Source of the DNA: Eledone cirrhosa
Taxonomy: Eukaryota
Assembly (NCBI GenBank): GCA_964016885.1
Contig: OZ024746.1
Location: 17,608,001-17,672,000 of the forward strand
Direction of reading: 5' to 3'
DNA: 64,000 nucleotides
Part shown: one piece after another, positions 5,364 to 63,544 of the stretch
Position numbering within the stretch: position 1 is the first letter of the stretch
Layout of the letters: each line of letters starts with the position of its first letter
Notes under the pieces: generated by a model
What the model saw: the letters and a program-made list of their open reading frames with translations, nothing else
Database searches by the model: none
Told to the model about the DNA's origin: nothing
Position numbers and translations under genes: made by a program

Positions 5364-5690
5364 TTCATTTTACGTCCGTTTTTCCCTGCTTGCAAGGGTG
5401 GGACGGGAACTGATTCTGGCTTGATTTCTACAGCTGGATGCCCTTCCTAACACCAACCTCATTTACAGTGAGTGCTGGGTGCTTTTTTGCCGTGGCACCT
5501 CCAAGACCACTTTGCAGTGGAATGATAGAGACCCCAGTCCCTATCATCTCATTTCTACAGCTGAGTAAACTGGAGCAATGTGAAATAAAGTCTCTTGCTC
5601 AAGGAAACAACACATCACCCGGTCTGAGAATTGAACTCACAACCTTTCGATTGCAAGGCCAATGCTCTAACCACTAAGCCATGTGCCTCC
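5364..5690 (-). mobile_element. tRNA-derived SINE family 2 with RTE-derived tail
   Basis: Minus: ggaggcacatggcttagtggttagagc (A box)...gagttcaattct (B box)...ccttgagcaagagact...cccacccttgcaagcagggaaaaacggacgtaaaatg. Confidence 0.85.
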
Positions 5691-6204
5691 ATATATAATA
5701 ATAATAAAAATAATAATGAGTATAACCAAAGTTGCAGCTGTGAGTAGCAGATTCACAATCGATTTTTGAAGGCTGTCACAAAGCACTCAGTGAAAGAGTA
5801 ATCAACATAAGTTAGGTAATAGTGACACAATGAAAAATGTGACCAGAGGCGTATTGTCACCTTAATACTACAACAATGAAATATATATATATACATGTGT
5901 ATCTCGGGTTCAATCAGGGGTTACCACAATAAGTAAGGTACTCAATACATAGAGTATATAATGTTTAATATAGAAATGGCTTCTACAGGACTAGAACTTT
6001 TTCATTTGAAGGAAACAGTTCTAGTCCGGTAGAAGCATTTTCTCTCTCGAGAGAGAGAGCCATTTCGACAGTTCGGATCTAGCTGTCGAAACAGCTGGAG
6101 CTCAGCTGTCGGGGTCCCCACTCTTTTTCTATTACCCTCTCTACTACCCTAAGTATCGAGTACTCTGGTGTGTTATCGTCCATCTGGTATCTTATCACAC
6201 CTTC

Positions 6205-6650: not shown

Positions 6651-6898
6651 CTTTGTTATATATATATATATATATATATATATTTCGTTTCTGAATTTGT
6701 TTAGCAAGATTCTTTATCTGAAATCGTGTGTTGAAACCGATATTGTTATACTTTGGGAGGGTCATGTTGCCAATAAGAAACACACGCACCAGTTGCTTTC
6801 ACTTCAATTTAATTTATTATATATTTATAAATTTACAAATTTATAAATTTCTGGTTGGTTGGTTGGTTCCACAACCAGATAGTTGTTTATATATATAT

Positions 6899-6943
6899 AG
6901 TCATAGTTCTTTCGTCACACACTCTGTGACCTCTTCAGTGACT
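6899..6943 (-). ncRNA. Minimal hammerhead ribozyme motif (mirror copy)
   Basis: Reverse complement of 7185-7229 in the left arm. Confidence 0.7.
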
Positions 6944-7184
6944 GGGGATTTCTTTCTTCGTTTCTGTGCCTTTCCTTTCTTCTATCCTACGCCATTTTGT
7001 TTGTGTGTGGGTTGCGTGCTCAGTTTGCGCATGCGCCACATCCGGGTGTCTGTGTGTGTTTGTGACAAACACACACAGACACCCGGATGTGGCGCATGCG
7101 CAAACTGAGCACGCAACCCACACACAAACAAAATGGCGTAGGATAGAAGAAAGGAAAGGCACAGAAACGAAGAAAGAAATCCCC

Positions 7185-7229
7185 AGTCACTGAAGAGGTC
7201 ACAGAGTGTGTGACGAAAGAACTATGACT
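7185..7229 (+). ncRNA. Minimal type-I hammerhead ribozyme motif
   Basis: AGTCA-CTGAAGA-g-GTCACA-gagtg-TGTGAC-GAAA-G-aa-C-TA-TGACT: stem I AGUCA/UGACU, stem II 6 bp, stem III 2 bp. Confidence 0.72.
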
Positions 7230-7380
7230 ATATATATATAAACAACTATCTGGTTGTGGAACCAACCAACCAACCAGAAATTTATAAATTTGTAAATTTA
7301 TAAATATATAATAAATTAAATTGAAGTGAAAGCAACTGGTGCGTGTGTTTCTTATTGGCAACATGACCCTCCCAAAGTAT

Positions 7381-7420
<40 letters not shown>

Positions 7421-8023
7421 ATATATACATACATACACTGAAATTTCTGAATGAAAAATGGAAATGAAATAATGGAAATGAAATAATGAAAAGAAATATC
7501 CTCACCACAGAGCAATGTTCATGAGATATTTTATTTGTGATGTGAAGATAATGGCAAATAATATGGAAATAAAAATTAACTGAAGCCGAAGCTGAAAAAA
7601 TATTTACAATTACAATTATTTGTAATGATGAAAATAAATTTCAGAAAAAAAAAAAGTCGTTTGTTATTTATCATAGAGGAATTGATGAGTATTATGAAAA
7701 ATTCAGCAATGTAAAATTTATTGAAGTATGTTGTATTTTTTTTTTTTTTTTGGTTTGTTGTTGATATAAAAAAGCCCTTAAGTTTACAAATAATAGTATT
7801 ATTGTGTTGTTGCAAATCTTCATCAGCAAATGTTCATTTTTATTGCATCTTTTATTTATTTAATATGAAAGGAAGAGAGAAAAGAATATCAGTAAAAGCT
7901 AGAGAAAAAAAAATCAGCAGCATAATGTTTTTTTTAAAGGAAATTTAGACATATTGTTATTGTTGTTGTATTCTTTTTTAAACTGAGAATTTTACAACTA
8001 ACTCAAGCATGAAGAATAATAGT

Positions 8024-10745: not shown

Positions 10746-13289
10746 AGGAGATGCTATTTGTAACCTATTTACTCAACAGCATAAACAGGAATACTTGTTG
10801 AAAAACGTAAAAAAAGAATGAAGGTCCCTCAGAACCTTAATAATAAATAATTTTTCAAGAAACAACATTTGCATAATTAATATGTAAATTAGCAACTGCC
10901 AATAGTGAAGATATGATGTAATGTCATTGGGAATTAATATGTATATTATGTGCATGTTTATATGTCTTTTATATATATGTGTGTAATAATTGAGAAATTC
11001 AGAAAGCCAGTACAATGTAATAGAAACATATATATGAAGGTGGTATAGGGGTAAAGATTGACAAATAAAAGAAAACAAAATGTTTTTACCCAGTATATTT
11101 CAAGCTTAGAACCAATAAAAGAAGAATGTATTAGTTTCTACTTGCATTTGAAAAATCATGATGAAATATACAGGTAAAAAACATAATTTTGTTATGTTTT
11201 ATTTGTCATCCTTTATCTCAATACCACCTATATATATATGTATGTGTGCATGTGTGTGTACTGGTTTTCTTAAGTTCTCGTCAATTATTACATATCTCAC
11301 AATGATGAACTATACTGCTATATATATATTATATATATATGGATGGATGTTGCATATCTATTATATGTATATATTACATATCTATTGCATGTATATTTAT
11401 ATGTTTATTATATATTTATATGTATATTATACATAAATTTTATGTGTATTCATATGCATATTATATGTTTATTATATATATATATTATGCCTATTATATA
11501 TAGATTTATATACCTATGTCTTATATTTATGTTTATATGGTTATTTATATGTTTCTAAATAAGTAAATATATATATTAATCAACTATTTAAGTTGCTAAA
11601 AATAAAGATGACAAAGATAGCTAGACAAAAATTTAATTATCAGTTCAGTTACAATTTAAAAAAAAAAAGAGAAAACATTTTAAAAGTCCAAATCAATAAA
11701 AAAAATGGTGATATTATTCAAATTTGATTTCATTTCTTGGACTTTGGGGATTAAAAAATATAATTGATATATAAATAAGAATTTCCAAGATTTTTTTTGT
11801 TTCCATAAAGAAAGAAAATAAATAAAATTTTAAATTAGTCATTTTTTATCAAACTTTTTTTTTATCTTGAAATATTTTAAAAGTTGATTTCTAATTTTAA
11901 AGTAATTTCTTTAAAATTACTTTAAAATTAATTTAATTACTCTAAAATTAAACAGGGAATCTATTTTCTGAAATCATTGAAAGAATGTCAGTATAGTATT
12001 ATCAAATATGCTGTTTCCTCAACAATCCTACCCTAGCAATGTTCTGTTCTTACTTTCTCAACATCATTAGTCTATGTACTATAGATGCACTTTTGATGAA
12101 TTGTAGTGCACCTGAGTACTGTACATAATAATATTCATTATTATTTATATCAACTCTACCCTAGGAATGTTTTCCTTTCACTAAACAGAAGACCAATTCT
12201 TTCGGCAGAGGGTGAGAATTGTTAACTGATTTTACCCAATTTAAATCTTTTTGATATCACACCACCTGAAGCCACCCCCGATTCTATTAAACAAATCAAC
12301 CCCTTTTAAAATTGTTTACATGTAAATTAAAAACCTTTTTATCAAATCATTTTATTAGTTTCAGTCATTTGACTGCAACCATGCTATAATTATAAAGTTT
12401 AAAAAAAATCATAATTTTATATACGCTGTGTGCATCTGGTTTAGAATGGTTTTACTATATCCCTGCATGTTGAAGTGACTAAAAGGGTTGGCCCCAGGAA
12501 GGTTTTCTGGTCATAAAACATTGCCTCAAAAAGGACCCCATGATGGGCATGGAGCTTACCATGGGGCCTGTAAGGTTAACTCCTGCTTTAGTAGAGAAAA
12601 TTGCCTTAAAATACTTAACAAAATTATTTCTAAAACCATTCTATTAATAATGGAGAAATTAATTTTGTTATTTGATAAAAATTCTTCCAAATTGTAGATT
12701 ATTTTCAAAATTTATTGAAACAAAGTATATTTCATTAGAAATATGGTCATGAATGCATTAACCCGTTAATGACTAGAGTTTTAATGAAATATGCAGTCTG
12801 CATGTTTCAGTTAATTTTGAAAATAATTGAAAAACTTTTTATAACTTATGTTTGTGTTTGGAACATAACAGAACGTTCTTAGATAAAATTATGTTGGAAA
12901 GTTTTTTATTGAAATATGAACACTTTAAAACAGGCAGTTTTATATTCTAGAACTAAGGGGTGGTGGTATCAAAAGGGGTTTTTATTACTGGACTCTAGAA
13001 GATGAAAGGCAAATGCAAGCTCCGGTGGGATTTGAAGTCAGAGAGAATGGATCAAGGAAGAAACTAAATTCTGTACAGCATTATTGCTGCATCTCCATCA
13101 TAACTAAATGGTTTCTCATGCAGGACACAACACTTGAAGGGACAAACCCATAGGAAGGAGAAATGAAGAGTTATGATGATTTATGGTTTGTGGCTATTTC
13201 TTAAGAGCACCAGAAATATATGAGAAAGCACCACCCCTCCACCTTTCCCAGTGATACCCATCACCAATAATAATAATAATAATAATAAT

Positions 13290-14467: not shown

Positions 14468-15022
14468 ATAATACCAGTTATAACTTAAGGGATGGCAACT
14501 GAAATAATACCAGTTATAACTTGGTTGATGGCAACTGAAATAATACCAGTTATAACTTGGTTGATGGCAACTGAAATAATACCAGTTATAATTTGGGTGA
14601 TGGCAACTGAAATAATACCAGTTATAACTTGGTTGATGGCAACTGAAATAATACCAGTTATAACTTGGGTGATGGCAACTGTAATAATACCAGTTATAAC
14701 TTAAGGGATGGCAACTGAAATAATACCAGTTATAACTTGGGTGATGGCAACTGAAATAATACCAGTTATAACTTGAGTGATGGCAACTGTAATAATACCA
14801 GTTATAACTTAAGGGATGGCAACTGAAATAATACCAGTTATAACTTAAGGGATGGCAACTGAAATAATACCAGTTATAACTTAAGGGATGGCAACTGAAA
14901 TAATACCAGTTATAACTTAAGGGATGGCAACTGAAATAATACCAGTTATAACTTAAGGGATGGCAACTGAAATAATACCAGTTATAACTTGGTGATGGCA
15001 ACTGTAATAATACTAGTTCTAA
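14468..15022. repeat. Minisatellite, 30 bp unit
   Basis: gatggcaactgaaataataccagttataacttaagg, ~18 copies. Confidence 0.95.
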
Positions 15023-15239
15023 CTGGATACCATATAAATTCTGAACTACAGGTAAAGAATCATCTAGACTAGGACTCCAGCGTGCCTGACAGTATAAATC
15101 ATACAGAAGACTACCTTACTGGCCATGGGGCTCCCTATTATAGGGAAGGTACTGATGTAGTCTATCTTAACTGTAGCCTTATAATGTAACCAATGACATC
15201 TATTGTCCTGTCTAACAGCGCACTCACTAATGGGTACAG

Positions 15240-18162: not shown

Positions 18163-18339
18163 TTATGATGTCCCAGAATTGTATAAAAAAACTTGTCAAA
18201 ATGACCAATTCAAGAGACATGACTGACAGATGCCATGTGACTTTGAGATATATGTAAAAATATTATAGTTTATACGAAGTGTTGTGAAATATATGGCTAG
18301 GATTGTTTGGTGGAAAGCTGGTATAATGGAAGTCAGAAA

Positions 18340-18625
18340 TACAGGAGTAAAACTAGAACAGAGTACAGAAAAATAATTAAAACAAAACAATAGTTTATTC
18401 TGTTGTCTTATATTTTATGATATTTCCTGGTTAGGATACCCTTTTCAAAAGAAAGAAAATGGAATATGATGGTGATGACAGCTTGTCACTACCATCATAT
18501 TATTCCATTTTCTTTCTTTTGAAAAAGGTGTCATAACATTGAAATGCCATGAAACATAAGGTAAAAGGGTAAACTATTGTTTGTGTTTTGTCTGTCTTAT
18601 ATCACTCTGTTTTCACTCCTTTATT
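18340..18625. repeat. Old diverged fold-back
   Basis: Inner arms ttttcaaaagaaagaaaatggaatatgatggtgatgaca / tgtcactaccatcatattattccattttctttcttttgaaaa; weaker outer similarity. Confidence 0.6.
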
Positions 18626-19337
18626 TCTCGTTTGCATTGTGTCAGATTTCCCCAAATAACCCTAACCACATATGGAAAAATGATTAAAAAAACAACAAAA
18701 ATGCATATTTGTGAACCAATTAAGCATATTAATTAATTGATTAATTAATTAATATATATGAAAGCGTCTATTACATAATATCGTAATGTTGGTGAAAAAA
18801 CTGTTATTTGAATTGTTATATAATACAAATGAAATGTTTTATAATAAATGAAGTTTTTAAAAAAATAATAAAACATTGCATGAAATTTTTTCAAAATGTT
18901 TTGTTTTTTCTGTTGTTTGTTTGATTGTTTGTTTGTTGTTTTTTTTTTTATTAATTTTCTCACACAAGTTATTATTATGTAATAACCTAATGATGAGAAA
19001 AAAACCTATATCTTCGTTTGATAATTGATATATGTAATACTAAATAACAAAAACATATGATATCAGTGTTTGATCATTATTGTCATTATGTAATAACTAA
19101 TCAGATAACATTACATTTGATCATTACTGTTATTACATAATAACCTAATGATGAGACAATATGATATCATTATTTAATCATTATTGTTATTATGTAATAA
19201 CTTAATGAGATTCAAATTATATTTTCATTTTCATCAATGTTATATGTAATTACTTAACAAGATTATACTGTTTCCATTATTATTATTACTATAGATAATT
19301 ACTTAATGACATGAAATTGTCTTCATTTTATTGTCAT

Positions 19338-21540: not shown

Positions 21541-22428
21541 CTGGAAATAGAAAAAAAAAAAATTAAATTAAAAAAGAAAATTAAAAATAGAAGTAAAAAT
21601 AAAAACAAACTGTAAAGAAAATTTGAGTAAGGGGATAAAGATGGAATAGACGCACTGTATGTCCTTCAGTAGACTAAACCCTATGCGTAAGATGGCGCTG
21701 CCACAACCACGTTGACCATCCACTGGACATAGAAATATCATTCCTTGAAGCAAATCGGCCTAGTACTTCAAAAGTTAAAAGAAGCCTAGTATTTGTACAC
21801 AGACAGATACACACACAAAATCGATTTTTCGGCCCCAATATCGTTTTTGTTCAAAACCTGCTCTGGTATATAAGCAACATGTGTGTCAAATTTGGTTGAA
21901 ATCGGCCTAGTACTTCAAAAGTTAAAAGGAGCCTAGTATTTGTACACAGACAGACACACACACACAGACCAACTTGCTTTTATATATATAGATATACATA
22001 TAAATTTTGAGTATATGTTGGTTGTTTACCGACACCTCAGTATGCAGATTGGAGCACTCGACGAAGTACGCAGGTTGGTTTGTTTACTCCGGAGTAATGT
22101 AAAATAAAATAAGTAACTCAAATATGTAAAATTTGGCTTTGTTTATTATAAATTCTCTGCTATATATATTTCGGTGACAGCTATTATTGGCTGTGACCTC
22201 TTCAGGCAGTCCGAATTGGTGTGGAAAAGACAGGTACACATGTTGTTGAAGTGTGTTCCACTCTGTCAATACATCGATATGTTCAGCTCAACACACCCAG
22301 GAGCTGGACATATCGATGTATTGACAGAGTGGAACACACTTCAACAACATGTGTACCTGTCTTTTCCACACCAATTCGGATTGCCTGAAGAGGTCACAGT
22401 CAATAATAGCTGTCACCGAAATATAATA

Positions 22429-22480
<52 letters not shown>

Positions 22481-25400
22481 CATATACATACATATACATA
22501 TAGATATATATACATATACATACATATATATATATATATACATAATATACATATATATATCCATATATATATATATATCAGCATCATCATTTTACGTCCG
22601 CTTTTCCCTGCTTGCAAGAGTGGGACGAGTCCTCTTCAACACAACATCTCCATTTATCACAGTCCTTCGTCATCTCCTCTGTGAGCTTCAACAATCTCTA
22701 TATATATATACACGTTATATACTTTGACCATGGTAGTTCGTGTTTTCTTTTCTTCGAGATTTGAAATAGTTGTATAGGATTATCATCATTCATCATCATT
22801 TCATTTTACGTCCGCTTTTCCCTGCTTGCAAGGGTGGGATAGGAACTGATTCTGGCTTGATTTCTGGCTTCATTTACAGTGAGTGGTGGGTGCTTTTTTG
22901 CCGTGGCACCTCCACGACCACTTTGCAGTGGAATGATAGGGGCCCAAGTCCCTATTATCTCATTTCTACAGCTGAGTAAACTGGAGCAATGTGAAATAAA
23001 GTGTCTTGCTCAAGGAAACAACACATCACCCGGTCTGAGAATTGAACTCACAACCTTTCGATTGCAAGGCCAATGCTCTAACCACTAAGCCATGTTCCTC
23101 CATAGTATAGGTATAATAACTAATGCAACATATTTAAAAATTCTGATTGCTTTTTTCCTGTTATATGTATTGCATTATATAACTATTTTGTTTTTCTGTT
23201 ATATTCTTCTATAAGTGTAATCTGGGATGGGTTTTTTTCAAATCTAACTTCCATTGAGCTTTTATAGAATAACTAAATCAAAATGTTATTTTTATTTTGA
23301 TATATATATATATATAGGGTGGGTAAAATTCCCGAGATCCATGGATGAGTTCTCTCCAGCAGTCTCTGTCCCTCATCATCGCTGCCATGTCCTGCGTCTC
23401 CAAGAGACCGGTGTCTGTCCTTAGGGCATCAACATATGTCAACCCCAGTCTCCCTCTTCTATACATATATATCCTCATCATCATTGTTTAACGTCCATTT
23501 TCCATGCTAGCATGGGTAGGACGGGCAGTCCCTTTCTGAGAGATCTGGTTGGAGAACCATGTATCGCTCATGCAGGGCTGATTTTGGCCTGGTTTCTATG
23601 GCTGGATGCCCTTCCTAACGACAACCGCATTTACAGTGTGTGATGGGTGCTTTTGGTCATGTCGCCATCACGACCACTTTATAGCAGGGGCTGGGTACTT
23701 TTTGTCGAGTCGCCATCATGACTACTTTACAGTGTGGGTTGGAGGCTTCACTGGATATATACTTCAGTTTGTCCTATATATATATATATATGCACACACA
23801 CACACACATGTACGTACACACACACACACATGTACACATACGCAAACACACACACACATATATATATATATATAAACCCTCACCTCTGTATAACCCTATT
23901 TATAAACCTCTATAAAATAGAATCCCACAGTTTAACACTCATTCATGTCCCCATTCAGACTGGTTTCCTAGTAACAAGATCAATCAGAATACTTGATGTC
24001 ATTAACCTGTTTCTGATGTCTTTGTAAATAATTGTTGATAATGTCCCTGTATTTCATCTTTGTTGTTATTTAGCAGTCTCTATAAGGGTTTAACAGGGAT
24101 TAGAAGAATGGTTTAATGGACTAGAAGAGGGGTTTTAAGAGGGTATAGCGAAAAGGCGAATGAGAGAGAGGGAACTGAAAGTTCTTCGTTTTATAGGGTT
24201 CTGCCGGAAGTGATAAAAAGGGTTCTATCACCCAAACGGGAAGCAACTCCAACTACTTCCCGTCTAGAGAGCGTTACTCCATTGGTGATGTGAGTGTCAC
24301 AAGGGAGGCAACTCCTGCTACTAGGGACTAAACGAAGGGTCTAACTGGGCCTAGAGGAAGGGTTTAAGAGGGATTATAGGAGGGGTTTAAGAGGGACTAG
24401 ATGAGGGGTTTAACAGGGACCATAAGGAGCACCAGCCTTAGAAACTCTGGAAAAGATCATGAGTACTTCTCTGCCATCATCTCTGACTAAACACGAAAAA
24501 AAGAAATAAAACAACATTATTCGAATAGTTGTCCTTCCTTATTTAAGACAATGGAATGTGATTTGAAAGAGAACTTAGCTGCTATTTCTTACAAGTTGAG
24601 GGAGCATGTATTGCATGTTGGAGCATCTATTGTACTTGGGAGCATATTTTGTATGTGATGGTGCACCTATTGTATGTGGTGGTGCATCTATTGTATGTGG
24701 TGGTGCACCTATTGTATGTGGTGATGCACCTATTGTAAGTGGTGGTGCATCTATTGTATGTGGTGGTGCACCTATTGTATGTGGTGGTGCACCTATTGTA
24801 TGTGGTGGTGCATCTATTGTATGTGGTGGTGCACCTATTGTATGTGGTGGTGCACCTATTGTATGTGGTGGTGCATCTATTGTATGTGGTGGTGCACCTA
24901 TTGTATGTGGTGGTGCATCTATTGTATGTGGTGGTGCACCTATTGTATGTGGTGGTGCATCTATTGTATGTGATGGTGTATCTATTGTATGTGGTGGTGT
25001 ATCTATTGTATGTGGTGGTGCACCTATTGTATGTGGTGGTGCATCTATTGTATGTGGTGGTGCACCTATTGTATGTGGTGGTGTATCTATTGTATGTGGT
25101 GGTGCACCTATTGTAAGTGGTGGTGCATCTATTGTATGTGGTGGTGCACCTATTGTATGTGGTGGTGCACCTATTGTATGTGGTGGTGCATCTATTGTAT
25201 GTGGTGGTGCACCTATTGTATGTGGTGGTGCACCTATTGTATGTGGTGGTGCATCTATTGTATGTGGTGGTGCACCTATTGTATGTGGTGGTGCATCTAT
25301 TGTATGTGGTGGTGCATCTATTGTATGTGATGGTGTATCTATTGTATGTGATGGTGCATCTATTGTATGTGGTGGTGCACCTATTGTATGTGGTGGTGCA

Positions 25401-27132
25401 TCTATTGTATGTGGTGGTGTACCTATTGTATGTGGTGGTGCATCTATTGTATGTGGTGGTGCACCTATTGTATGTGGTGGTGCATCTATTGTATGTGATG
25501 GTGCATCTATTGTATGTGGTGGTGCACCTATTGTATGTGGTGGTGCATCTATTGTATGTGGTGGTGCACCTATTGTATGTGGTGGTGCATCTATTGTATG
25601 TGGTGGTGCACCTATTGTATGTGGTGGTGCATATATTGTATGTGATGGTGTATCTATTGTATGTGGTGGTGCATCTATTGTATGTGGCGTTGCACCTATT
25701 GTATGTGGTGGTGCATCTATTGTATGTGGTGGTGCACCTATTGTATGTGGTGGTGCATCTATTGTATGTGGTGGTGCACCTATTGTATGTGGTGGTGCAT
25801 CTATTGTATGTGGTGGTGCATCTATTGTATGTGGTGGTGCACCTATTGTATGTGGTGGTGCATCTATTGTATGTGGTGGTGCACCTATTGTATGTGGTGG
25901 TGCACCTATTGTATGTGGTGGTGCACCTATTGTATGTGGTGGTGCACCTATTGTATGTGGTGGTGCACCTATTGTATGTGGTGGTGCATCTATTGTATGT
26001 GGTGGTGTATCTATTGTATGTGGTGGTGCATCTATTGTATGTGGTGGTGCACCTATTGTATGTGGTGGTGCATCTATTGTATGTGGTGGTGCATCTATTG
26101 TATGTGGTGGTGCATATATTTATGCGATGGTGCATCTATTGTATGTGATGGTGCACCTATTGTATGTGATGGTGCACCTATTGTACATGGTGGTGCACCT
26201 ATTGTATGTGGTGGTGCATCTATTGTATGCGATGGTGCATCTATTGTATGTGATGGTGCACCTATTGTATGTGATGGTGCACCTATTGTACATGGTGGTG
26301 CACCTATTGTATGTGGTGGTGCATCTATTTATGCGATGGTGCATCTATTGTATGTGATGGTGCACCTATTGTATGTGATGGTGCACCTATTGTACATGGT
26401 GGTGCACCTATTGTATGTGGTGGTGCATCTATTGTATGTGGTGGTGCATCTATTGTATGTGATGGTGCATCTATTGTAAGTGGTGGTGCACCTATTGTAT
26501 GTGATGGTGCATCTATTGTATGTGATGGTGCACCTATTGTATGTGGTGGTGCATCTATTGTATGTGATGGTGCATCTATTGTATGTGATGGTGCACCTAT
26601 TGTATGTGGTGGTGCATCTATTGTATGTGATGGTGCAGGATGTGTTGTTTACTAAGTGAAAAAGGTGGGACAGATTTTTGCTTTCATTCCATTCATAACA
26701 GCACATTTAATTAACATTAACTTCCTATATAGACAATATTAATTGCTTGATAATAAAGCCACCAACAATGTTAGAGATCAATAAATCAATATACTTCAAT
26801 GTTGGATATCAATAATAGCTCCATTCAGAATATTAAAGGTGAAGGTGGTGGTGGTGATTGTAGATATAAGTATTTATATATAAATAAATATAGGTGTCTA
26901 TTTATACAAACAGGAAATGTATGTATGTATGGTGTATGTATGTATGTATGTATGTATGTATGTATGTATGGTGTATGTATGTATGTATGGTATATGTATG
27001 TATGTATGGTGTATGCATGAATGTGGGTGTGTGTATTCTTACCCACAGCCACAAATATATACATATATATACACACACACACATATATATATGTGTATAT
27101 ATATATATACACATACACACACACACACACAC

Positions 27133-30100: not shown

Positions 30101-33100
30101 CTGGTACTTTATTTTATCAACTCCATAAGGATGAAAGGCAAAGCTAACCTCAGCAAGATTTGAACTCAAAAAATAAAGCACTGGAACAAACACTGCAAAG
30201 CATCTGTCAGCTGTTTTAACAATTCTGCCAATCTGCTGCCATATTAATTACTCAAATAATAATAATAACTATCTGGAAAAACCTCAACATAAATTAAGGA
30301 CAGATATGAAGAGTATGGAAGGATGTTAATAGGAGAAAGGGCAAGATTGCACCTCATCATAGACACCGGGTTGTGGTCTTCACTTAACTGAAAAACATCC
30401 AACAAAATATTTGCCATTCCACTACTCCTGGACTGGTTTTTATATTATTTAACCCCTGAAAAGATGAACGACAAAGTTGACCATGGCAGAATTTGAACCC
30501 AGAATACAGAGAGTTGGTACAAATATGAGGTCTTTAATCAAACAGTCTAACAACATCTTAAAGACCAATCATCATCATTATCATCATTATTGTTTAATCT
30601 CTATTTTCAATGTGTGCATGGGTTGGATGGTTGTCATGTACTGAGGCCTGATTGGTCAGGTGACTAGGTCCTGCTTGTACGCCTTGCTTTGGCTTGGCTT
30701 CTCTAGCTGGATGTCCTTCCTAACGCCAACCACTTTACAGTATGTACTGAGAGCATTTTATCATGATGTCAGCACTACAAACTTACAGGATGGATTGAGT
30801 GGTTTTCGTCATGGCCGCAGCACTACACCCTCACAGGGTGGACTGGATGCTTTTATCATGGCACCAATGCTATCACATTACAGGGTGGACTAGGTGCTTT
30901 GGTCATGGCACCAGCACTACCTCATTACAACACTAGTGAGCTCAGAGTATTTGGTCCTGCTAGGGTGTGGTGGGTGGATTGAAGTAGTGTTTAAAACATT
31001 ATCAAACAAAGAACAGTTCCTTTTCCAATTTGAATGTGAAATTTAACAAACCGTCTCTGAATTTTGTATGAACAATATTCTTTCCATAAAGTCTGTCTTC
31101 TCTTCTGCCTTACTGCTATGGACTATTATATGTCCAAACTCAATTTCACCATCATCCTTCCAATATTTACAGCAGGTCTGCAAAATTATTAAAAATAAAA
31201 TAAAAAAAAACAAACACATTTTGCTAATTAATAAATTAAGGGGCAATATATACAATAAGGATGAAATGTGAATGTGAATCTAGTGATGAAATGTGAATCT
31301 AGTGATGAAATGTGAATCTAGTATTGAAATGTGAATCTAGTGATGAAATGTTAATCTTTACTACCATGTGGTCAACAAAGTGGAGCAAAACTCCTAAAAA
31401 CCACAATAAATCATTTTCTGTAACTCCTGATAATTATATAAGTTTTTAAAGTCTAGCAGCAATCTGTAAAGTAAGAATTGTAAATGGTGAAATTGTAACT
31501 CACTTCATCCATAGAATCATCACTATTCAACATCACAATTGTGCTACTTTGGATATCACAAACCATCTGCCAAAAATCTTCAATAGTTTCCTTCATTGGC
31601 ATCTGTGTAGCTATATAATTGCGGGGATTTTCATGACTCTGTAATTGAAATGGAAGAAAATATAAACATAAACCCACTGACTAGAATTTTTAAAAATCAA
31701 GATAAAAAAAAAATCTTCTAATTTAGATCCAAGTCAAAGTGTCAGATAGAATATTCTGGTCATCTGGTTCCTACAGCCTCACGATAACAAGTCACTACGC
31801 TCTTCCATCTTTCTCTGTCTCTAGCAAGGATTGGCTCTTGAAACCAGTTTGTGCCACACCTGTGCAGGTCATCTTTTAGGGTGGATCTCCAGGTTTTCTT
31901 TGGCCTACCCCCTTGGTCTTTTCCCAGCAGCTGGCAAACACAACATTGCATTTCTTGCTGGTATATTGTCTTCTATTCATATGACATACTCTGCTAGTAC
32001 AATGTACTGCCTGGATCAGAAATGGAACCCACAACTTTATGATCATGATTACTACAACCTAACTAAAAGACAAGGGGTTGGAAGTTTGTATCTTGTTTTT
32101 ACATTTTATAGACAGACAAGTGTCAGAGAGGGCAGGTGGCTGTAAAACATTTGCCTCAAATCCTCATGTCCAACCCATGCCAACATGGAGGATGAGGAGG
32201 AGGAGGAGAGGAGGAGGGGGGAGAGGAGAAAAAAGCAAAAAAAAACAAAAACAGTATAAATATAAGAAATCAGATATACAATTACAGGTAGATAAACCGC
32301 ATTGATATATCGTGGCTGGCCATCTGGTGCAGGCTTTAGATAGGGGCGATACAAGTCACCTGAAATGTTTAAAAAAAGAAAGTGTTTTGATTATAAATAA
32401 TCAAATTTGTAATTTTAATGTTCTACTTGACAGAAAACTGTTGTGATAGTTGATATATCACCTCAATAGATGGCATGTTACCTCTGTGGTAGGTATGTTA
32501 CCGCAGTGGTAGGTATGTTACCTCAGTGGTAGGTATGTTACCTCAGTGGCAGGTATGTTACTTCAATAGAAGGTATGTTACCTCATTGGTAGGTATGTTA
32601 CCTCAGTGGTAGGTATGTTACCTCAGTGGTAGGTATGTTACCTCAGTGGTAGGTATGTTACCTCAGTGGTAGGTATGTCACCTCAATAGATGGCATGTTA
32701 CCTCTGTGGTAGGTATGTTACCTCAGTGGTAGGTATGTTACCTCAGTGGTAGGTATGTTACCTCAGTGGCAGGTATGTTACTTCAATAGAAGGTATGTTA
32801 CCTCAGTGGTAGGTATGTTACCTCAGTGGTAGGTATCTTACCTCAGTGGCAGGTATGTTACCTCAGTGGCAGGTATGTTACCTCAGTTGTAGGTACGTTA
32901 CCTCTGTTGTAGATATGTTACCTCAATGGTAGGTATGTTACCTCAGTGGTAGGTATGTTACCCCAATAGAAGGTATGTTACCTCAGTGGTAGGTTTGTTA
33001 CCTCAGTGGTAGGTATGTTACCTCAGTGGAAGGTATATTACCTCAGTGGTAGGTATATTACCTCAGTGGAAGGTATGTTACCTCATTGGTAGGTATGTTA

Positions 33101-36100
33101 CCTCATTGGTAGGTATGTTACCTCAGTGGTAGGTATGTTACCTCAGTGGTAGGTATGTTACCTCATTGGTAGGTATGTTACCTCATTGGTAGGTATGTTA
33201 CCTCAGTGGTAGGTATGTTACCTCAGTGGTAGGTATGTTACCTCAGTGGTAGGTATGTTACCTCAGTGGTAGGTATGTTACCTCAGTGGTAGGTATGTTA
33301 CCTCAATAGTAAATATGTTACCTCATAAGTAGGTATGTTACCTCAATAGTAGGTATGTTACCTCAGTGGTAGGTATGTTACCTCAGTGGTAGGTATGTTA
33401 CCTCAGTGGTAGGTATATACACAATACAATTTAGTCAAAATAATAATAAGCTACTTACTAGCAAGAATATTTTTCACACGCGTTTTATTCAAATTATTTT
33501 TCAATTTTGCCGTTTCTAAAAATTCTTGAGATGTCTGAGGATATTCAAGTTCTTGTAGTTCCTGAGTGGAAATAAAAGGTTGACAAATTTCATGTAGTCT
33601 GAGAGAAAAAGGCAATGGCTGTGATGTCAGGGAGGGGCTGTGTCTATAGTCCTTTTCAGGGCCTCTGAGACTGGTAAGAGAGAAATGGACAGTGTGTATG
33701 ACCCTTTCTTGGGCCACCAAAAGTGCTGAGAGGGATGGGGTAGTACCTATGACCTGCTTCAGGGTTTCCAAAAGTACTGAGAAGGAGGAGTAGTGTGTAT
33801 GACCCTTTCTAGGGTCTCCAAGGGTGGTGAAAGGGAGGAATGAAGGTACTGTAAACAAGTGACTTGGTCTGAATGATTGCATTAACACACCTACTACCAA
33901 CAACAGCAGTTGCCATGTTAAGGTTAAATGAAAGTCTTAATGTAATACATCTACCACCAACACCAACAGTAGCTGCCATATTAAGAGTTAAGTGAAAGTT
34001 GATGTTGAAACAAACCTGAAATTGTTGCTGTAGAAGTGTTTTGGAAGAAACATTCTCCTCATTTTCTTCATTCAACTTCTGATAAAAATTGGGGAAATTC
34101 TCAATGGTTACTTGTGTTTGCTGTAAAAATATACTTTCCACAAGAGCAAAGTAGATGAATTCATACTGATCCTAAAGAAAGAAAGAAAGAATGTGTTATA
34201 CCTTCATTTAACCCTTTAATTACCATGTTATTAATGAAAGACACTATGTCATTAACCCTTTCATTACCATGTTTCCAATGAAAGACACTGTCTATATATT
34301 AACCCTTTCATTACCAAGTTTCTAATGAAAGACACTGTCTATATATTAACCCTTTCATTACCATGTTTCCAATGAAAGACACTGTTTATATCATTAACCC
34401 TTTCATTGCCATGTTTCTAATGAAAGACACTGTCTATATATTAACCCTTTCATTACCATGTTTCTAATGAAAGACACTGTCTATATATTAACCCTTTCAT
34501 TGCCATGTTCTAATGAAAGACACTGTTTATATCATTAACCCTTTCATTACCATGTTTCTAATGAAAGACACTGTCTATATATTAACCCTTTCATTACCAT
34601 GTTTCTAATGAAAGACACTCTATATATTAACCCTTTCATTGCCATGTTCTAATGAAAGACACTGTCTATATATTAACCCTTTCATTACCATGTTTCTAAT
34701 GAAAGACACTGTCTATATATTAACCCTTTCATTACCATGTTCTAATGAAAGACACTGTCTATATATTAACCCTTTCATTGCCATGTTCTAATGAAAGACA
34801 CTGTCTATATATTAACCCTTTCATTACCATGTTTCTAATGAAAGACACTGTCTATATATTAACCCTTTCATTACCATGTTTCCAATGAAAGACACTGTCT
34901 ATATATTAACCCTTTCAATACCATGTTTCTAATGAAAGACACTGTCTATATATTAACCCTTTCATTGCCATGTTTCTAATGAAAGACACTGTTTATATCA
35001 TTAACCCTTTCATTGCCATGTTTCTAATGAAAGACACTGTCTATATATTAACCCTTTCATTACCATGTTTCTAATGAAAGACACTGTCTATATATTAACC
35101 CTTTCATTGCCATGTTCTAATGAAAGACACTGTTTATATCATTAACCCTTTCATTACCATGTTTCTAATGAAAGACACTGTCTATATATTAACCCTTTCA
35201 TTACCATGTTTCTAATGAAAGACACTGTCTATATATTAACCCTTTCATTGCCATGTTCTAATGAAAGACACTGTCTATATATTAACCCTTTCATTACCAT
35301 GTTTCTAATGAAAGACACTGTCTATATATTTACCCTTTCATTACCATGTTCTAATGAAAGACACTGTCTATATATTAACCCTTTCATTACCATGTTGCTA
35401 ATGAAAGACACTGTCTATATATTAACCCTTTCATTACCATGTTTCTAATGAAAGACACTGTTTATATCATTAACCCTTTCATTGCCATGTTTCTAATGAA
35501 AGACACTGTCTATATATTAACCCTTTCATTGCCATGCTTCTAATGAAAGACACTGTTTATATCATTAACCCTTTCATTGCCATGTTTCTAATGAAAGACA
35601 CTGTCTATATATTAACCCTTTCATTACCATGTTTCTAATGAAAGACACTGTCTATATATTAACCCTTTCATTGCCATGTTCTAATGAAAGACACTGTTTA
35701 TATCATTAACCCTTTCATTGCCATGTTTCTAATGAAAGACACTGTCTATATATTAACCCTTTCATTACCATGTTTCTAATGAAAGACACTGTCTATATAT
35801 TAACCCTTTCATTGCCATGTTCTAATGAAAGACACTGTTTATATCATTAACCCTTTCATTGCCATGTTTCTAATGAAAGACACTGTCTATATATTAACCC
35901 TTTCATTACCATGTTTCTAATGAAAGACACTGTCTATATATTAACCCTTTCATTACCATGTTTCTAATGAAAGACACTGTCTATATATTAACCCTTTCTT
36001 TACCACGTTTCTAATGAAAGGTACTGCCTATGTCATTAACCCTTTCATTGCCGTGTTTCTAATGAAAGGTACTGCTTATGGTTTTCAAATCATTTTGAAA

Positions 36101-42100: not shown

Positions 42101-45100
42101 GTAATTACTGGTATCCGTATTGTTTATAATAAAATCTCCACTTACATGCAACAATATTTTTATATCTATTCTTTGCCTTATTTTCCTGCAGATTGGCAGC
42201 TTTGCACGTTGCCTCAGTATTCTGGGATAATCTCTGAAAATAATATTTAGAAATGAAAAATTATATATGTTTAGCTTGAGAATTTGAAAACAGTTTCTGA
42301 TATAATTAGTCCTTATTGTCTATTTTATATTCTGTTTACTGATTTATTTATTTTTGTACATGACCAAGGGCATTGAAGGGGGGGGGGGGGGGGGGGCACA
42401 GTTCAAATGTTCCTTGAAGGGGTCAATGAAGCATCAAATAATCCAGGAAGGGGGTCAATGATATAAAATATTTAGGGGTTTTTGCACATTATTTCAATGT
42501 ATTTATCTTCAAATATCTTCTACAAAAGATTATTACTAAAACAAAAATTGTCCATGGCTGGGAGATGAGGGGATTCCAGGAAGGAAGGGAATGATCTAAA
42601 AACATTTAGGGATTTCTATACATTATTACAATAGATTTTGCTGACTGTTCTTCATGACAATGTTTTTATGATATTGTCCATGGGGTGCAGTGTTGAGATA
42701 TACCACATAGACAGGGGTGTGTAATTTGCTCCTACACCCTTCCCCTTATTTTCATTATATATATATGTAATTTGTTTCTATAAAATTATTTACTTTCAAA
42801 TATCTCCTGCAAATGATTTACCAAATAACAAACAAAAAGAAAAAGATAAAGAAAAAAGGACAAAGAAAAAAAGAAATGATTTTATAAGAAGGTATTTACC
42901 CTGTATTCAGCCCCAAATCCCCCTTCAAAGTTTCGTTTGTTCTGTATATAGGCCTGAAGTTCATCAACTGGGATGGAGTCGGGAATTATAATATCGTTCT
43001 CACCAACATTCATATAAATAATTTCATCCTCACACTGGATATCAGCATTACTGCCATCTGGTGGGAAATAATGTCATAGTGATTATAGTGATGATAATGC
43101 TCATGTGATAGTGATAATGTTTACGTGATACTGATAATGTATTCTATAATGGTAATATTCATGTTATAGTGGTAATGCTTGTGATATAGTGATAATTGTT
43201 TCTACTTTTGGCACAAGGCCAGCAATTCTCCAGTACATTACTGGTACTTTATTTTATCGACCCCGTAAGGATGAAAGGCAAAGTTAACCTCAGTGGGATT
43301 TGAACTCAGAATGGCAAGGGCCGTAACTCTATGCGTCAAAGCATGGCGTCCGACCCTCTACCAATACTGTCAATCCACCGCCCTGGTAAAATAATATAGT
43401 GATATAGTGATAATGTTTATATGATAGTGATAATACAATTTAAAAAAATTCACTGAAAACTGTTAAAATATTTACTTGTTTTTGTAGTTACAGGTCATAA
43501 TTATTAATTACATAATAGTTCAATTTATGGATAAACATTAATTGAAAATTGATACATTTAGTAAAATTTACAATTTTATTTGATCAACAAAATTTTAAGT
43601 TATTAGATTGGATGTTATATTATAGTGTAGGTGATTTAATGAATTACTGGTGGTGTTACCAAAAGGAGCACTCAATGTACAGGCAGAGTGTATAAAGAAA
43701 AACAATGAAGTTTCATTTACATGTATTTCGTTTTTTTTTTATTGTGTATGAACTTGTTACACGTGTTTCACAGAGGATTGGCTCAAGGTCACCCATAGAA
43801 GTTATGGACCTGACTCCATTATGGATTTACTCCTCAGACTGTTGATTCAACAAAAAGTACAGCTTTGTTGAATTACCAGTCTGAAGAACAGGTCCATAAT
43901 GGAGTCAGGTCCAAAACTTCTATGGGTGACCTTGAGCCAATCTTCTGTGAAACGTATGACACACAATAAGAACTAAATGCATGTAAATGAAACTTCATTG
44001 TTTTTGTTAATGTGTGTGTGTGCGTGCGTGTGTATACTTGTTGCATTGTCATGTTGTTGACAATTAAACCAGGAACTCCATAAAACCTTGGTGAGAAGGA
44101 GAATTTCAAGGCACCTTGCTGAATGAAAAACAAAGCCTGCCAAAGAGCAGATGAACTCACAAGAGTCATTGACCATCCAATTGTGTGCATATATGCATGT
44201 GTATATACATGTATATATACATATATATGTAATTACATGTGAGTATGTAAATCACACAATAGAATGATACTCTTACTTGAAACCTGTAGTGTTTCTAGTC
44301 ACTGGTGGCCAGGCCATCTCTGTAGCTGGTCTATAAGCTTCAAACACTCAAAGAATGTTACTCATGTCACACAAGTATTTGACACTAAGATTTGATGTGT
44401 CATTATTTTTCGAGGGTGAGTAAAGACTAGGATTTCTTGGAACCACAAACAGAAAGTGTGCCATTCATTGTGACAGACAGGGTATTTTGTACATCTCTGA
44501 TAATGAAATACTGCCACTTCTATAGTTTCCTTGATTGGGAGGGCACATAGAAAATGTTGTATGGGGGGATCAGTCACAATTCTCCATTCACTTTTGTGAC
44601 TATATTCTCCATTTCTCCATTAAGGTACCATTGGTGTCTACAAGATAGAGTCATAGTCTTGTCATTTTAGGACATAAGTTGGCCCTACTCATGTCAACAA
44701 CCACTCTGCTATTTCGCAGAATTAGTATATAAGTAGCTGAGTATTCCACAGACACATACACCCTTAATGCAATTCTTAGGGAGATTCAGCATGACATAGT
44801 CTGATACAGCTGACACCCTGAATCACAGATACAGTCTGTTCAATGGGCTTCTAAACATGCTACATAGTGAGTGTGAACATGAGATCCTCATGTTTCTGAA
44901 GCAAGTGTCTTAATCATTCACCTACATTGCATCCATGATGATATGATGATGATGATGATGACAGTAACATCAATGATGATGAAGAGGAGGATAACAGCAA
45001 TAGTCATGATAATGATGATGATGATAATAATGGGAATGACAACAATACTAACGATAACAATGATGATGATGATGATGATGATGATCAACTGGAACACTTT

Positions 45101-48100
45101 CCTCACCCATATGAGAAGGCAGTACCCTCCCCCTCCATGAACTTAAAAATAAATGGAAATCAAGCAGAAAAAAACCTGTGTGTTTATCTTACCAATTAAT
45201 AACAGGTGAGTTTTAACCACAGATACCTTCCAGGTGATTTAGAATAGTATATTGATATAGCCTGGTTGTGTATGTATCTTGTTTAGAATCGGTACACTGT
45301 GTCCCTGTATGTAATAAGGAGCAACTAAAATAGTTGGCAATAAGAAGGGCATCTAGCTGTAAAACATTGCAGGTCCCCTAAACTTTGAATTATAAACACC
45401 ATTTTATTATTATACTTTTTGACCCAAGTGATAAACAGCATTTTATTACTTCTGACAATTAGACTTTATCAATATGTATACATATATATATTTATATATA
45501 TAAGTAAGTATGTTTTGAAACAGTGAGCAAGTTTGAAATTAGAAATAGAATAGCTTTCACCGTATTTTTGACTAAAGAAATTTTAGCCTGATAATGGGGT
45601 TTAGAACCCTCAGATAAATGGAAAAAGATGAGTCAGTACTCATCTTTTTCCATTTATCTGAGGGTTCTAAACCCCATTATCAGGCTAAAATTTCTTTAGT
45701 CAAAAATACGGTGAAAGCTATTCTACTTCTAATTTATATATATGTATACTGACATACAGGTAGCTGAGGAAAGCCTGAAAAGGAAAGTTACTCCACACAA
45801 AACACTAAAGTCTTGTTAAGATGTTGGCAATCTTTGAACCATAGATGAAGTAAATAGAAGTTGTTTAATGAGCCGTAACAGCTGTAAATATAAAATCTCT
45901 GTCAAAATGGCAACAGTGTTGGGTTACAACTAGATTAATTATTACCACCGGCTTAATTATTTCATTAATTAACTAACGGCTGAAGCAAAGAGAGAAGAGA
46001 ACTTATTCAGAAACAAAACCATCATCATCGTCGTCATCAACAGAATCTACATCAACATCAAATGGAATAATTCCACATCTGCAGCAAATGGAATAATTCC
46101 AAATGTGGAATAAAAAAATAAAACAAAAAAACAACCATCGATCGTCATTTCAAAACTATCGTTGTAATCCATTCAAAATCAATCAACAAAATCATTTAAA
46201 ATCATTAACATCACTAGCAAAACAGGTAAAAAAATGAAGCCAAAATATATTTGAATACTAACGAATCACAAGCAAAATGAAATAACGAACTTTCTGGAAG
46301 AATAACCATCATCAGTGTCAGATTGAAACAGATTCAAATTCTTGGAAGATAATGGAAGTTTACTGTCATTTTAATTACGGGGATATTTTTATCCCGCCAT
46401 GGATTCTCTGTCACTTTTGATGATGATCATCCAGTCATTCAATCAACTGAAAGTCTTGTAGAGGAAGAACTAAAACTTTTCTTTCTCCCCTGCCCCCAAA
46501 GGATAGTCTTATATCCTCCTGAACTAACATCAAAGATGGAGAACTGAGAATGTTGATCGAAAACTATTTTTAAAAAAAATTACTGAATTGAGAACAGGAA
46601 AAGGCCCTTAACTCCTATTGGCATTGTAGGGGGCGCTATCCTGTATTGGGTATATTAAACCTGGTAGAGCCCATTTCTCTCCAAGTCTAAACACAGCTGG
46701 TTTCTTCCAGAGAAAGAGAGCAAGAGAAAATGATAAAGAGAGACAGAGAAGAAGAATCGACTCCAGTACATGACTGGTACTTTATTTATCAACCATGAAA
46801 GGATGAAAGGCAAAGTCAACCTCAGCAGGATTTGAACTCAGAGAGAGAGCAGAGAGCTGGAATGAATTCAGAGACATTTAATCTGATGCCTTAGCAACTC
46901 TGTCAATTCTCAATTCACTGCCTTTGAATTGATAAACTAAATAATATTGATTTCAAATAAATAATATTGATTTACAATAAATATTGATCCAGCATCAAAA
47001 GAACATGTTTATAAACTGACGATCTCTTGTAAATATGTGAGAAAACCAAACCATACCTAGAACCTCCATAATTCCAAATTGTAAACGTAAACCATGGTTT
47101 GATGAAGATTGCAGGGACGCTATAAAAGAGCGAAAAAAATAAGAAAAAAAACACAAACAAAAACAAAGGTGGGCAAAAAATCTTGAAACAAAGACATCGG
47201 ATATTTCTGTTCATCTGAAAAAATACAACAAAGGATCTCTAAACTGAGAAATAGACTTATAACATAACTAAAACACAAGTAATCTGTATAGAATATGGGG
47301 TGTTTTCTACAGTAAATAACCCACAAGATATTGTAAATATGATAAAATATGTTGTTTTCTATAGTGAGTAACCCATAAGATATTGTATATATAAAATATG
47401 TAATGAATATATGTTAAAACATGTGGTGTACACTATTATGAATAACTCACAAGATATTGTATATATGACAGAACATGGGGTGTACAATATATCACTGTTT
47501 GATGAATTTGTTTTCCACAGGCTTTATTGAGGTGAGAATAGATTTAGTAATAGATGTTAAACTGAATAGAAAAAATGGCAAGTATTTCATGAATAGAAAA
47601 TGTTGTTTTCTAAAGTAAATAATCCTATAAAACATGAAATATATGATAAAAGATGATGTGCACAAAATATTAATGTTTAATGAATTTGGTTTTTACAGGT
47701 TCTATTGAAGTGAGAAAGAATCTGGTAGTAGATGTTAAATTGTTTTTAACATTATTGTTTAGGTTCAAATAACACAAAACAAAATCATTTTACTTAGTTA
47801 TAAACAACAAGTCAGTGTTAACAGAAACTGGTACTAGGGTTACAAATTGTCAGTGTTAACAGAAACTGGTACTAGGACTACATATTGTCAGTGTTAACAG
47901 AAGCTGGTACTAGTCAATATGATCAGATACTAGTACTAGGACCAAATACAGTCAGTTTGTGTGAACAAATACTGGTACTAGAACTAGATACTGTCAGTCA
48001 ATGTTAGCATATACTGGTACTAATTTGAACACACCAGTCAATGAGATTCATACAAATCATTAAGTCCAAAATAGTAGAAAAAACCATTATTAATTTGATA

Positions 48101-60156: not shown

Positions 60157-60201
<45 letters not shown>

Positions 60202-60813
60202 ATACTTTGGGAGGGTCATGTTGCCAATAAGAAACACATGCACCAGTTGCTTTCAATTCAATTTATTATAATAAATTTATAATAAATTTATAATAAATTT
60301 ATAAATTTCTGGTTGGTTGGTTGGTTCCACAACCAGATAGTTGTTTATATATTGTCATAGTTCTTTCGTCACACACTCTGTGACCTCTTCAGTGACTGGG
60401 GATTCCTTTCTTTGTTTTTGTGCCTCTCCTTTGTTCTGTCCTACGCCATTTTGTTTCTGAGAAACAAAATGGCGTAGGCGTAGGACAGAACAAAGGAGAG
60501 GCACAAAAACAAAGAAAGGAATCCCCAGTCACTGAAGAGGTCACAGAGTGTGTGACGAAAGAACTATGACAATATATAAACAACTATCTGGTTGTGGAAC
60601 CAACCAACCAACCAGAAATTTATAAATTTATAAATTTATTATAAATTTATTATAATAAATTGAAGTGAAAGCAACTGGTGCGTGTGTTTCTTATTGGCAA
60701 CATGACCCTCCCAAAGTATAACAATATCGGTTTCAACACACGATTTCAGATAAAGAATCTTGGCTAAACAAATTCAGAAACGAAATATATATATATATGT
60801 GTGTGTGTGTGTA

Positions 60814-63528: not shown

Positions 63529-63544
63529 CGTAGTTTAGAAAGCC

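Follow-up and report, generated by a model that had tools for sequence, protein, structure and literature searches.

The palindrome at 6684-7388 of the window, the 64,000-nt stretch of the Eledone cirrhosa assembly analysed here, is genuine in the assembly and is a head-to-head pair of ribozyme-bearing ends of a Penelope-like retrotransposon (PLE) within (TA)n. Very probably it is a 5'-truncated head-to-head insertion of a young PLE, likely formed when one sense RNA was reverse-transcribed twice, with priming from both target strands. A sequence-only reading had described a near-perfect palindrome about a 1-nt centre at 7064, with a hammerhead motif on each strand and predicted cuts after 7224 and 6904. 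The motif positions agree with ours, and the arms are in fact perfect, being complementary at 324/324 nt (100%) in the assembly sequence; what had been overlooked is the 56-nt unpaired tail that extends one arm and the identity of the arms as PLE pseudo-LTRs (pLTRs).

This identity follows from mapping the window onto an intact copy of the element, with the A of the ATG counted as +1. The minus strand matches the element from +86 to -299 at 99.5% identity and the plus strand from -298 to +26 at 99.4%, so that, judged by this alignment, the arms are the pLTRs of a PLE and the unpaired stretch is its 'tail' (Table 1). The two element ends of the window copy lie 60 nt apart on the element, both at AATATCG sequences that share ATAT with the target, and both outer ends of the palindrome adjoin (TA)n. 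A second copy, from an older subfamily, is present in the window at 60182-60788, with its junction at -240|-237, its tail on the right and (TA)n on both sides; its arms (60194-60788) are 95.8% alike, and a 7-nt duplication stands beside its centre.

Table 1. Features of the palindrome and its flanks in the window, followed by the edited sister loci
Feature	Positions	Strand	Remarks
(TA)n target, left flank	6657..6683	.	last ATAT, 6680-6683, common to element +83..+86
Unpaired tail, ORF positions +82..+27	6684..6739	-	56 nt continuing the left arm
PLE ORF start, 27 codons (MTLPKY...QKR), interrupted by target	6685..6765	-	
Left arm, pLTR, element +26..-298	6740..7063	-	to -299 with G7064
Minimal type I hammerhead, minus copy	6899..6943	-	predicted cut after 6904; mirror of plus copy
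1-nt centre (G7064), head-to-head junction -299|-298	7064..7064	.	
Right arm, pLTR, element -298..+26	7065..7388	+	tail-less end
Promoter-like motifs CCGGATGT (7083), GCGCATGCGC (7092), AAAATGGCG (7130)	7083..7138	+	mirrored at 7045, 7036 and 6998 on the minus strand
Element -250..-220, cDNA 5'-end hot spot in sister copies	7113..7143	+	mirror at 7015-6985
Minimal type I hammerhead, plus copy	7185..7229	+	predicted cut after A7224
ORF start, ATG at 7363, interrupted at +23..+26	7363..7388	+	
(TA)n target, right flank	7385..7435	.	ATAT, 7385-7388, common to element +23..+26
Edited loci L258 (C1:2082000-2091999), L259 (C1:18410500-18415500), L271, L274			dense A>G, pLTR only

Three ribozyme cores at 4,423-bp spacing on chromosome C1 led to an intact ORF of 1,318 aa (L031:5153-9109; protein P0001), and the parent occurs there as a tandem with a unit of 4,423 bp. 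On its domains, the parent is an endonuclease-positive (EN+) PLE with intact reverse transcriptase (RT) and GIY-YIG endonuclease. Its single ORF contains a telomerase-like RT (RVT_1, E 2.5e-4, a weak match below the Pfam cut-off) and, in the C-terminal 170 aa, a GIY-YIG domain (PF01541) that scores 23.8 bits, over the cut-off of 22.6; Pfam searched with the full-length protein gave no match. The endonuclease carries CCHH, with two Cys between GIY and YIG (VVYSIRC....C....VYIGET...EH...H), and a zinc-finger-like CX2-5CxxC linker between RT and endonuclease, CIDKKCITC in P0001, is kept in 20/20 rows of alignment A1. The predicted model of P0001 (mean pLDDT 84.8) finds its best fold matches in TERTs (Z 14.6, rmsd 5.4, 393 aligned) and also matches I-TevI (Z 9.8, rmsd 2.3, 90 aligned), while a PDB sequence search returned two bacterial defence RTs and nothing else. 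Near the N terminus lies an Asn/His/Thr-rich low-complexity stretch of ~200 aa. Among named proteins, the nearest relative comes from Octopus vulgaris (67%). Most relatives at 28-49% identity are ENA proteins without a name, and the protein Atlas gave unnamed clusters together with clusters holding RVT_1, GIY-YIG or HTH_animal families.

The spacing of RT motifs A and B sets this family apart. It is given as 131 aa for the parent and is 127-133 aa in all 20 A1 rows and in P0043, against 61-62 aa in the remaining PLE ORFs from this genome that showed both motifs. Counted by eye in Fig. S1 of PMC8557442, the spacing is about 60-63 in canonical PLEs, which are described there as lacking the insertion in the fingers domain (IFD), 84 in a Naiad and 118 in human TERT. 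In the papers that could be searched, we found no report of an insertion at the IFD position in PLEs with a C-terminal endonuclease. The family also differs from the named types: Naiad and Chlamys have an N-terminal endonuclease, whereas the GIY-YIG here is C-terminal; Hydra elements lack CCHH and have a CxCX5C linker, whereas CCHH and CxxxxCxxC are present here; and Neptune and Nematis have DKG and no IFD, whereas P0001 has a ~70-aa A-B insertion and DKSG, with DKS or DKT, not DKG, in 20/20 A1 rows. In a quick unrooted tree built from 17 of the family's 45 proteins together with six genomic ORFs (23 rows), the 17 family rows form their own branch (SH-aLRT 99), the other types in it being assigned by motif only. 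In local alignments, P0001 shares 22-30% identity with Neptune-type and short-linker ORFs of the same genome. That genome holds, by motif, several other PLE types (L239, L241, L242, L245, L249 and L243), among them Neptune-type elements with ORFs up to 1,096 aa, short-linker elements and one Hydra-like endonuclease; a first look at the genome gave 10,597 GIY-YIG candidates.

The family is abundant. Exact-pattern searches of the 3.0-Gb genome placed a 21-mer ending at the ATG at 27,716 positions, that is, ~27,700 arm-sized copies, and a marker of the young subfamily at 3,100. Genome-wide, 12,601 element ends continue past +26 into the tail/ORF and 13,495 are tail-less and joined to TA. For the mechanism, the first 100 places on one chromosome (C1) were taken for each of the two patterns and mapped onto the intact copy, yielding a mixed-age set (set A) of 70 loci (L049-L118; places in loci already taken were omitted) and a young set (set B) of 72 loci. 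Head-to-head pairs, taken as arms adjoining within -45 to +60 nt, numbered 63 once the two window copies and one duplicate row had been removed.

These sister insertions display the same layout as the window copy: 61 of the 63 pairs join one tailed to one tail-less arm, and TA-like DNA flanks 58 of the 63 on both sides. The pLTR occurs both in a partial tandem (the 4,423-bp unit) and in inverted pairs with a one-sided tail. The inner ends of the arms are variable, with junction positions from -5 to beyond -3000. Among the 61 pairs, the arms are symmetric within 10 nt in 24 and their 5' ends lie more than 15 nt apart in 35; in 12 of these the tailed arm reaches further upstream, and in 23 it is the tail-less arm, so that neither arm contains the other and two cDNAs are required. 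The excess of longer tail-less arms (23 vs 12) is not significant (p = 0.09). Symmetric junctions outside the 5'-end hot spot described below, which is the class of the window copy, were observed 9 times against 0.83 expected from shuffled pairing; with the two window copies left out, the figures are 5 vs 0.92 and 3 vs 0.21. Some of the symmetric junctions fall on local palindromes (-83|-83, -57|-57, -789|-789). BLAST identities had suggested that the two arms come from different source elements, which alignment ruled out: the arms of one insertion share subfamily alleles, and in 46 pairs 13 of the 840 diagnostic cells disagree, against a shuffled rate of 0.358. Four junctions (L046, L163, L167 and L171) contain templated inserts, that of L046 being a 14-nt unit repeated three times, which presumably resemble the products of template switching or polymerase-theta joining. 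A further arrangement, a seamless tandem at L258:1729-6957, holds two pLTRs from different subfamilies and suggests, from its sequence, that a young copy inserted into an older one at the +26 site.

Under the proposed mechanism, the endonuclease would cut both strands of (TA)n, and each target 3' end would pair through ATAT with one of two sites on the RNA. Both cDNAs would then be extended upstream across an uncut ribozyme, each ending independently of the other or at the 5' end of the RNA, and would be joined 3' end to 3' end, each presumably serving as template for the second strand of the other; a perfect palindrome would arise where both had halted at one place. The excess of symmetric junctions would be accounted for if, on one RNA, a second RT caught up with the first. 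A purified PLE protein has been described as cutting and extending both strands from two internal start sites that bound the tail, ribozyme cleavage not being required (PMC11167929).

The positions at which the cDNAs end bear on the state of the template. In the young set, 41 of 107 5' ends fall at -250..-220, ~100 nt upstream of the ribozyme cut, and only two fall at -148..-131 around the cut itself (-139|-138); the corresponding counts in the mixed-age set are 11/86 and 0/86. These numbers show no 5'-end peak at the cut and, since the ends gather upstream of it and rarely at it, indicate that the templates were mostly uncut. Near -3529, where the sequence is of low complexity, the apparent ends are breaks in the alignment and not genuine. 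Motifs located from the sequence at element -280, -271 and -233 resemble ETS, NRF-1 and YY1 sites and are candidate promoter motifs. Given these promoter-like motifs, and given that transcription of the Drosophila element starts inside its pLTR (PMC2377424), the -250..-220 cluster likely marks the RNA 5' end, or transcription start zone, in which case the hot-spot templates would have carried an uncut ribozyme. A cap-derived G shows no clear excess at the 5' ends, the base before the 41 hot-spot ends being T in 17, G in 10, A in 8 and C in 6. Pausing may be an alternative cause of the hot spot; a strong RNA hairpin was rejected as a cause, only a weak one being predicted (-13 kcal/mol over 80-150 nt).

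The ribozyme motif, AGTCA-CTGAAGA-G-GTCACA(loop)TGTGAC-GAAA-GAAC-TA-TGACT, is present in both window arms and at -178..-134 of the intact element. In the plus copy, stem I is formed by 7185-89/7225-29, the core by 7190-96 and stem II by 7198-7203/7209-14, with GAAA at 7215-18 and a stem III of two base pairs (A7218-G7219/C7222-T7223) closed by an AA loop. The core features of a minimal type I hammerhead are found: the CUGANGA core, GAAA, NUH, a nucleotide between 9 and 10.1, and the G10.1-C11.1 pair. The extra G (G7197) and the 2-bp stem III, both remarked on in the sequence-only reading, are features of published PLE ribozymes, in which an unpaired base precedes stem II and which are also found in pairs, one on each strand, at a distance of 100-700 bp (PMC4209133). 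An exact search of the genome gave 5,030 copies of the 39-nt core and none of the reversed control; the motif is therefore not a chance occurrence. Rfam gave no hammerhead match at E<=1 in the whole window or at E<=10 in 7150-7270, and hence what supports the ribozyme call is the motif pattern together with the literature, and no covariance-model hit. Sub-threshold Rfam matches to miRNA-like hairpins were dismissed, as any perfect palindrome yields such matches.

Shuffle z-scores of the isolated motif are weak (-0.56 to -1.18), and pairing probabilities in the sense arm are 0.65-0.94 for stem II and 0.29-0.41 for stem I. The earlier suggestion that activity needs dimerisation is in keeping with our analysis, from which a dimer or a helper would be expected, as is known of PLE ribozymes (PMC4209133). 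The minimal ones in the literature show weak cleavage, and this only as dimers (PMC4209133; PMC6765202) or with the element's own protein (PMC11167929). In the stretch AGAACU of stem III, the outer two pairs are self-complementary and the inner AA is not; with AA as loop III the stretch is not strictly palindromic, in which it differs from the minimal hammerheads of metazoan PLEs (PMC4209133), and a dimer helix would therefore carry two mismatches. The best dimer predicted by ViennaRNA differs from the active fold and, since the two ribozymes of the window copy lie on opposite strands, they cannot dimerise within one transcript. The window's variant of the motif is found in 78 of 92 arms of the young set. 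Three recurring variants make up 35 (19, 14 and 2) of the 60 motif-spanning arms of the mixed-age set, the other 25 being singletons; 14 of the 60, from another subfamily, have GA as loop III. The recurring variants vary solely in loop II, loop III, H17 (A/U) and the outer pair of stem I, a sequence pattern that fits selection on the core, though changes are few. In the window copy the ribozyme would be a passenger, dispensable for insertion, and its cleavage is predicted to require either dimer formation or the protein of the element.

Further evidence on the template comes from clusters of A>G changes. Of 389 alignments to the intact copy, four are dominated by sense-strand A>G and none by T>C, G>A or C>T; a scan in 100-nt windows also gave three weaker G>A stretches. 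The four arms are both arms of two insertions, L258 and L110 (= L259), whose A>G changes are restricted to -232..-84 and -231..-67, respectively. L258 has 33 A>G changes common to both arms (of 34 and 33), a pattern occurring nowhere else, and L110 has 28 (of 30 and 29), in arms of which neither contains the other. One forced-edit pattern search returned 4 arms at 2 loci, with no additional locus, and a second returned 9 arms at 6 loci, adding L270, L271, L272 and L274. Of these, L271 is a third locus with an A>G cluster common to both arms, while L270 and L272, with only 2-5 A>G, are not informative. In sense terms, one arm of L274 carries 23 T>C and its partner 4 A>G, so that every A>G lies on the same genomic strand; a fold-back RNA edited on both sides and then copied whole would give this pattern.

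The edited A's avoid a 5' G (17/51 vs 90/159, p = 0.006, with sites that are not independent), and ADAR disfavours a 5' G next to the edited A; the preference for a 3' G (28/45, p = 0.095) is not significant. Insertions with such clusters are few, and part of the A>G calls made in older copies reflect subfamily variation. From the shared clusters we infer that the templates were sense RNA, that both arms came from one molecule and that the pLTR was sometimes double-stranded; copies with a destroyed ribozyme core would still have been inserted. Alternatively, the shared edits could stem from gene conversion between the arms after insertion. A rolling-circle test at L258 was uninformative, as the downstream pLTR is unedited and belongs to another subfamily.

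The same element could have produced the palindrome by self-priming, with one cDNA folding back and being copied onto itself, a variant of which, with an antisense RNA as template, has been proposed (PMC3846280). For the window copy, the tailed arm contains the tail-less one, so that a single-cDNA fold-back is possible; the 324/324 identity of its arms and the roughly tenfold excess of symmetric junctions outside the hot spot, some of them on local palindromes, would agree with it. It is nevertheless unlikely: self-priming is unable to give the 23 pairs in which neither arm contains the other, a priming hairpin is impossible with a 1-nt loop, the second end at +23..+26 is left unexplained, and the sense-strand A>G clusters at three loci indicate a sense template. 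That the window copy is the daughter of an older palindrome, a non-autonomous unit copied from fold-back read-through RNA, is very unlikely. L274 fits such an edited hairpin RNA copied as a single molecule, but the window junction recurs at one other place only (L276), in an older subfamily that is 91-92% alike, with different flanks, and the left arm of the window copy differs from the intact copy at only 2 of 381 positions, with no edit cluster.

The sequence-only reading had further proposed that the antisense arm sequesters the ribozyme as a built-in off switch. Part of this stands: both stems I and II fall to a predicted probability of 0.0 in the full fold-back, edited copies indicate that the pLTR region occurs as double-stranded RNA, and the edited fold-back RNA recorded at L274 implies that dsRNA of the palindrome can form. 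A functional unit in which the antisense arm is retained for this purpose is, by contrast, highly improbable, as the palindrome appears to be one outcome of an insertion process whose junctions are so widely scattered and whose products are asymmetric in 35 of 61 sister pairs. The window copy has no ORF to regulate, it is so young that conservation cannot be shown, and the likely start sites inside the palindrome centre face outwards and would give sense RNA without the antisense arm. Just as improbable is a chimera of assembly or amplification. Perfectly identical arms are what such an artefact would leave, but the ends are unequal and lie at the family's two fixed sites, unique flanks adjoin both sides, the second window copy has diverged arms, and the same junction formed independently at L276, where the arms have diverged as well. 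MITEs and other fold-back DNA transposons are short and non-coding, with a long inverted repeat, a TA-rich target and a high copy number; such an origin was rejected in view of the variable length and centre, the RT-encoding parent and the ends unequal by a fixed 60 nt. We retain twin priming on one sense RNA as the likely reading of the window copy.

Other palindromes and repeats occur in the window. One of a second family (22050-22440; 171 exact 25-mers genome-wide) has a hammerhead motif in each arm, with no extra G and with ATATAT as stem III; a copy 75% alike lies beside a short-linker PLE RT in L252, and tblastn found no link between this family (22165) and P0001. At 63529-64000 and L048:1030-1862, a palindrome with a one-sided extension of ~46 nt lies between (TA)n runs, and a further palindrome follows it directly, just past the window end; the layout is the same in other sequences, and a pattern search found no canonical hammerhead core in the first of the two. 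Five more (45536-45735, 43692-44011, 18289-18673, 10982-11292 and 5972-6043), of 70-390 bp with arms 71-97% identical, are probably older fold-back insertions or MITEs. A cluster of inverted 76-146-nt repeats at 51546-52727 belongs to an abundant dispersed family seen in many of the examined loci. Two tRNA-like Rfam matches just under the cut-off (28.1 bits; 5624-5681 and 23035-23092 on the minus strand) are probably the heads of tRNA-derived SINEs, and minisatellites lie at 24604-26637 (21 nt), 32475-33416 (20 nt), 34208-36068 (47 nt) and 14468-15024 (36 nt).

The inverted-pair architecture with ribozymes is already known for PLEs, and the finding as first noted is not new. In their accessible text, reports on EN+ PLEs (PMC8557442, PMC3846280, PMC2377424) describe RT with a C-terminal GIY-YIG and CCHH, partial tandems as pLTRs, an adjacent inverted 5'-truncated copy with a tail at one end only, the first ORF codons within the pLTR, (TA)n targets and an Asn-rich low-complexity ORF stretch, all shared by the family studied here. 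It differs in its tail of 60 nt, against 30-40 in these reports, in having DKSG instead of the published DKG (PMC8557442) and in its very high copy number. With Poseidon of Anolis carolinensis (PAc; PMC11167929, as far as accessible) it shares two internal RT start sites bounding the tail, the cutting and extension of both target strands, an AT-rich target and uncut RNA as the main template. In contrast to PAc, its ribozyme lies 139 nt upstream of the ATG and does not overlap the ORF start, its start sites share ATAT with the target, whereas the PAc start site is not homologous to the cut DNA, and it has the linker zinc finger that the PAc clade lacks. The accessible parts of that paper do not link its results to head-to-head insertions. 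Nematis and Neptune (PMC8557442) share the CX2-5CxxC linker before GIY-YIG, and its 7-aa distance here from the following Cys is similar to that in the Nematis rows of Fig. S2 there; the ~70-aa insertion at the IFD position distinguishes the present family from both.

What is new is the pairing of tailed with tail-less arms (61/63), the finding that in 23 of these 61 neither arm lies wholly within the other, and the A>G clusters common to both arms at three insertions. Our literature search, whose coverage lay mostly outside subscription journals and Repbase, where the family may be filed, found no publication that treats this lineage, twin priming by PLEs or scars of editing in their genomic copies, and these topics do not appear in the accessible parts of the Octopus vulgaris repeat annotation (PMC13282606) or of a retrozyme preprint (10.64898/2026.07.22.740005). 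A broader picture can be put forward tentatively, with slightly less than even confidence: an undescribed lineage of C-terminal-endonuclease PLEs with a fingers insertion of telomerase length, in which a single sense RNA, capped and uncut, is reverse-transcribed onto both cut target strands by two RTs starting at two ATAT-primed sites, in which germ-line A-to-I edits made in fold-back or antisense-paired pLTR RNA now and then enter the genome as a barcode of the RNA molecule, and in which fold-back RNAs are re-copied as whole units.

The finding matters because the formation of tandem and inverted PLE insertions has been named as an open question (PMC8557442; PMC11167929). This family is young, has an intact parent and numbers thousands of insertions, and it offers countable evidence for two cDNAs, one sense RNA and an uncut ribozyme, as against the published model of self-priming with an antisense template. 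A further suggestion is that short PLE fold-backs can be taken for MITEs or miRNA hairpins. Finally, the animal group of the host is one of heavy A-to-I editing, and the many thousands of fold-backs suggest themselves as a source of edited dsRNA.
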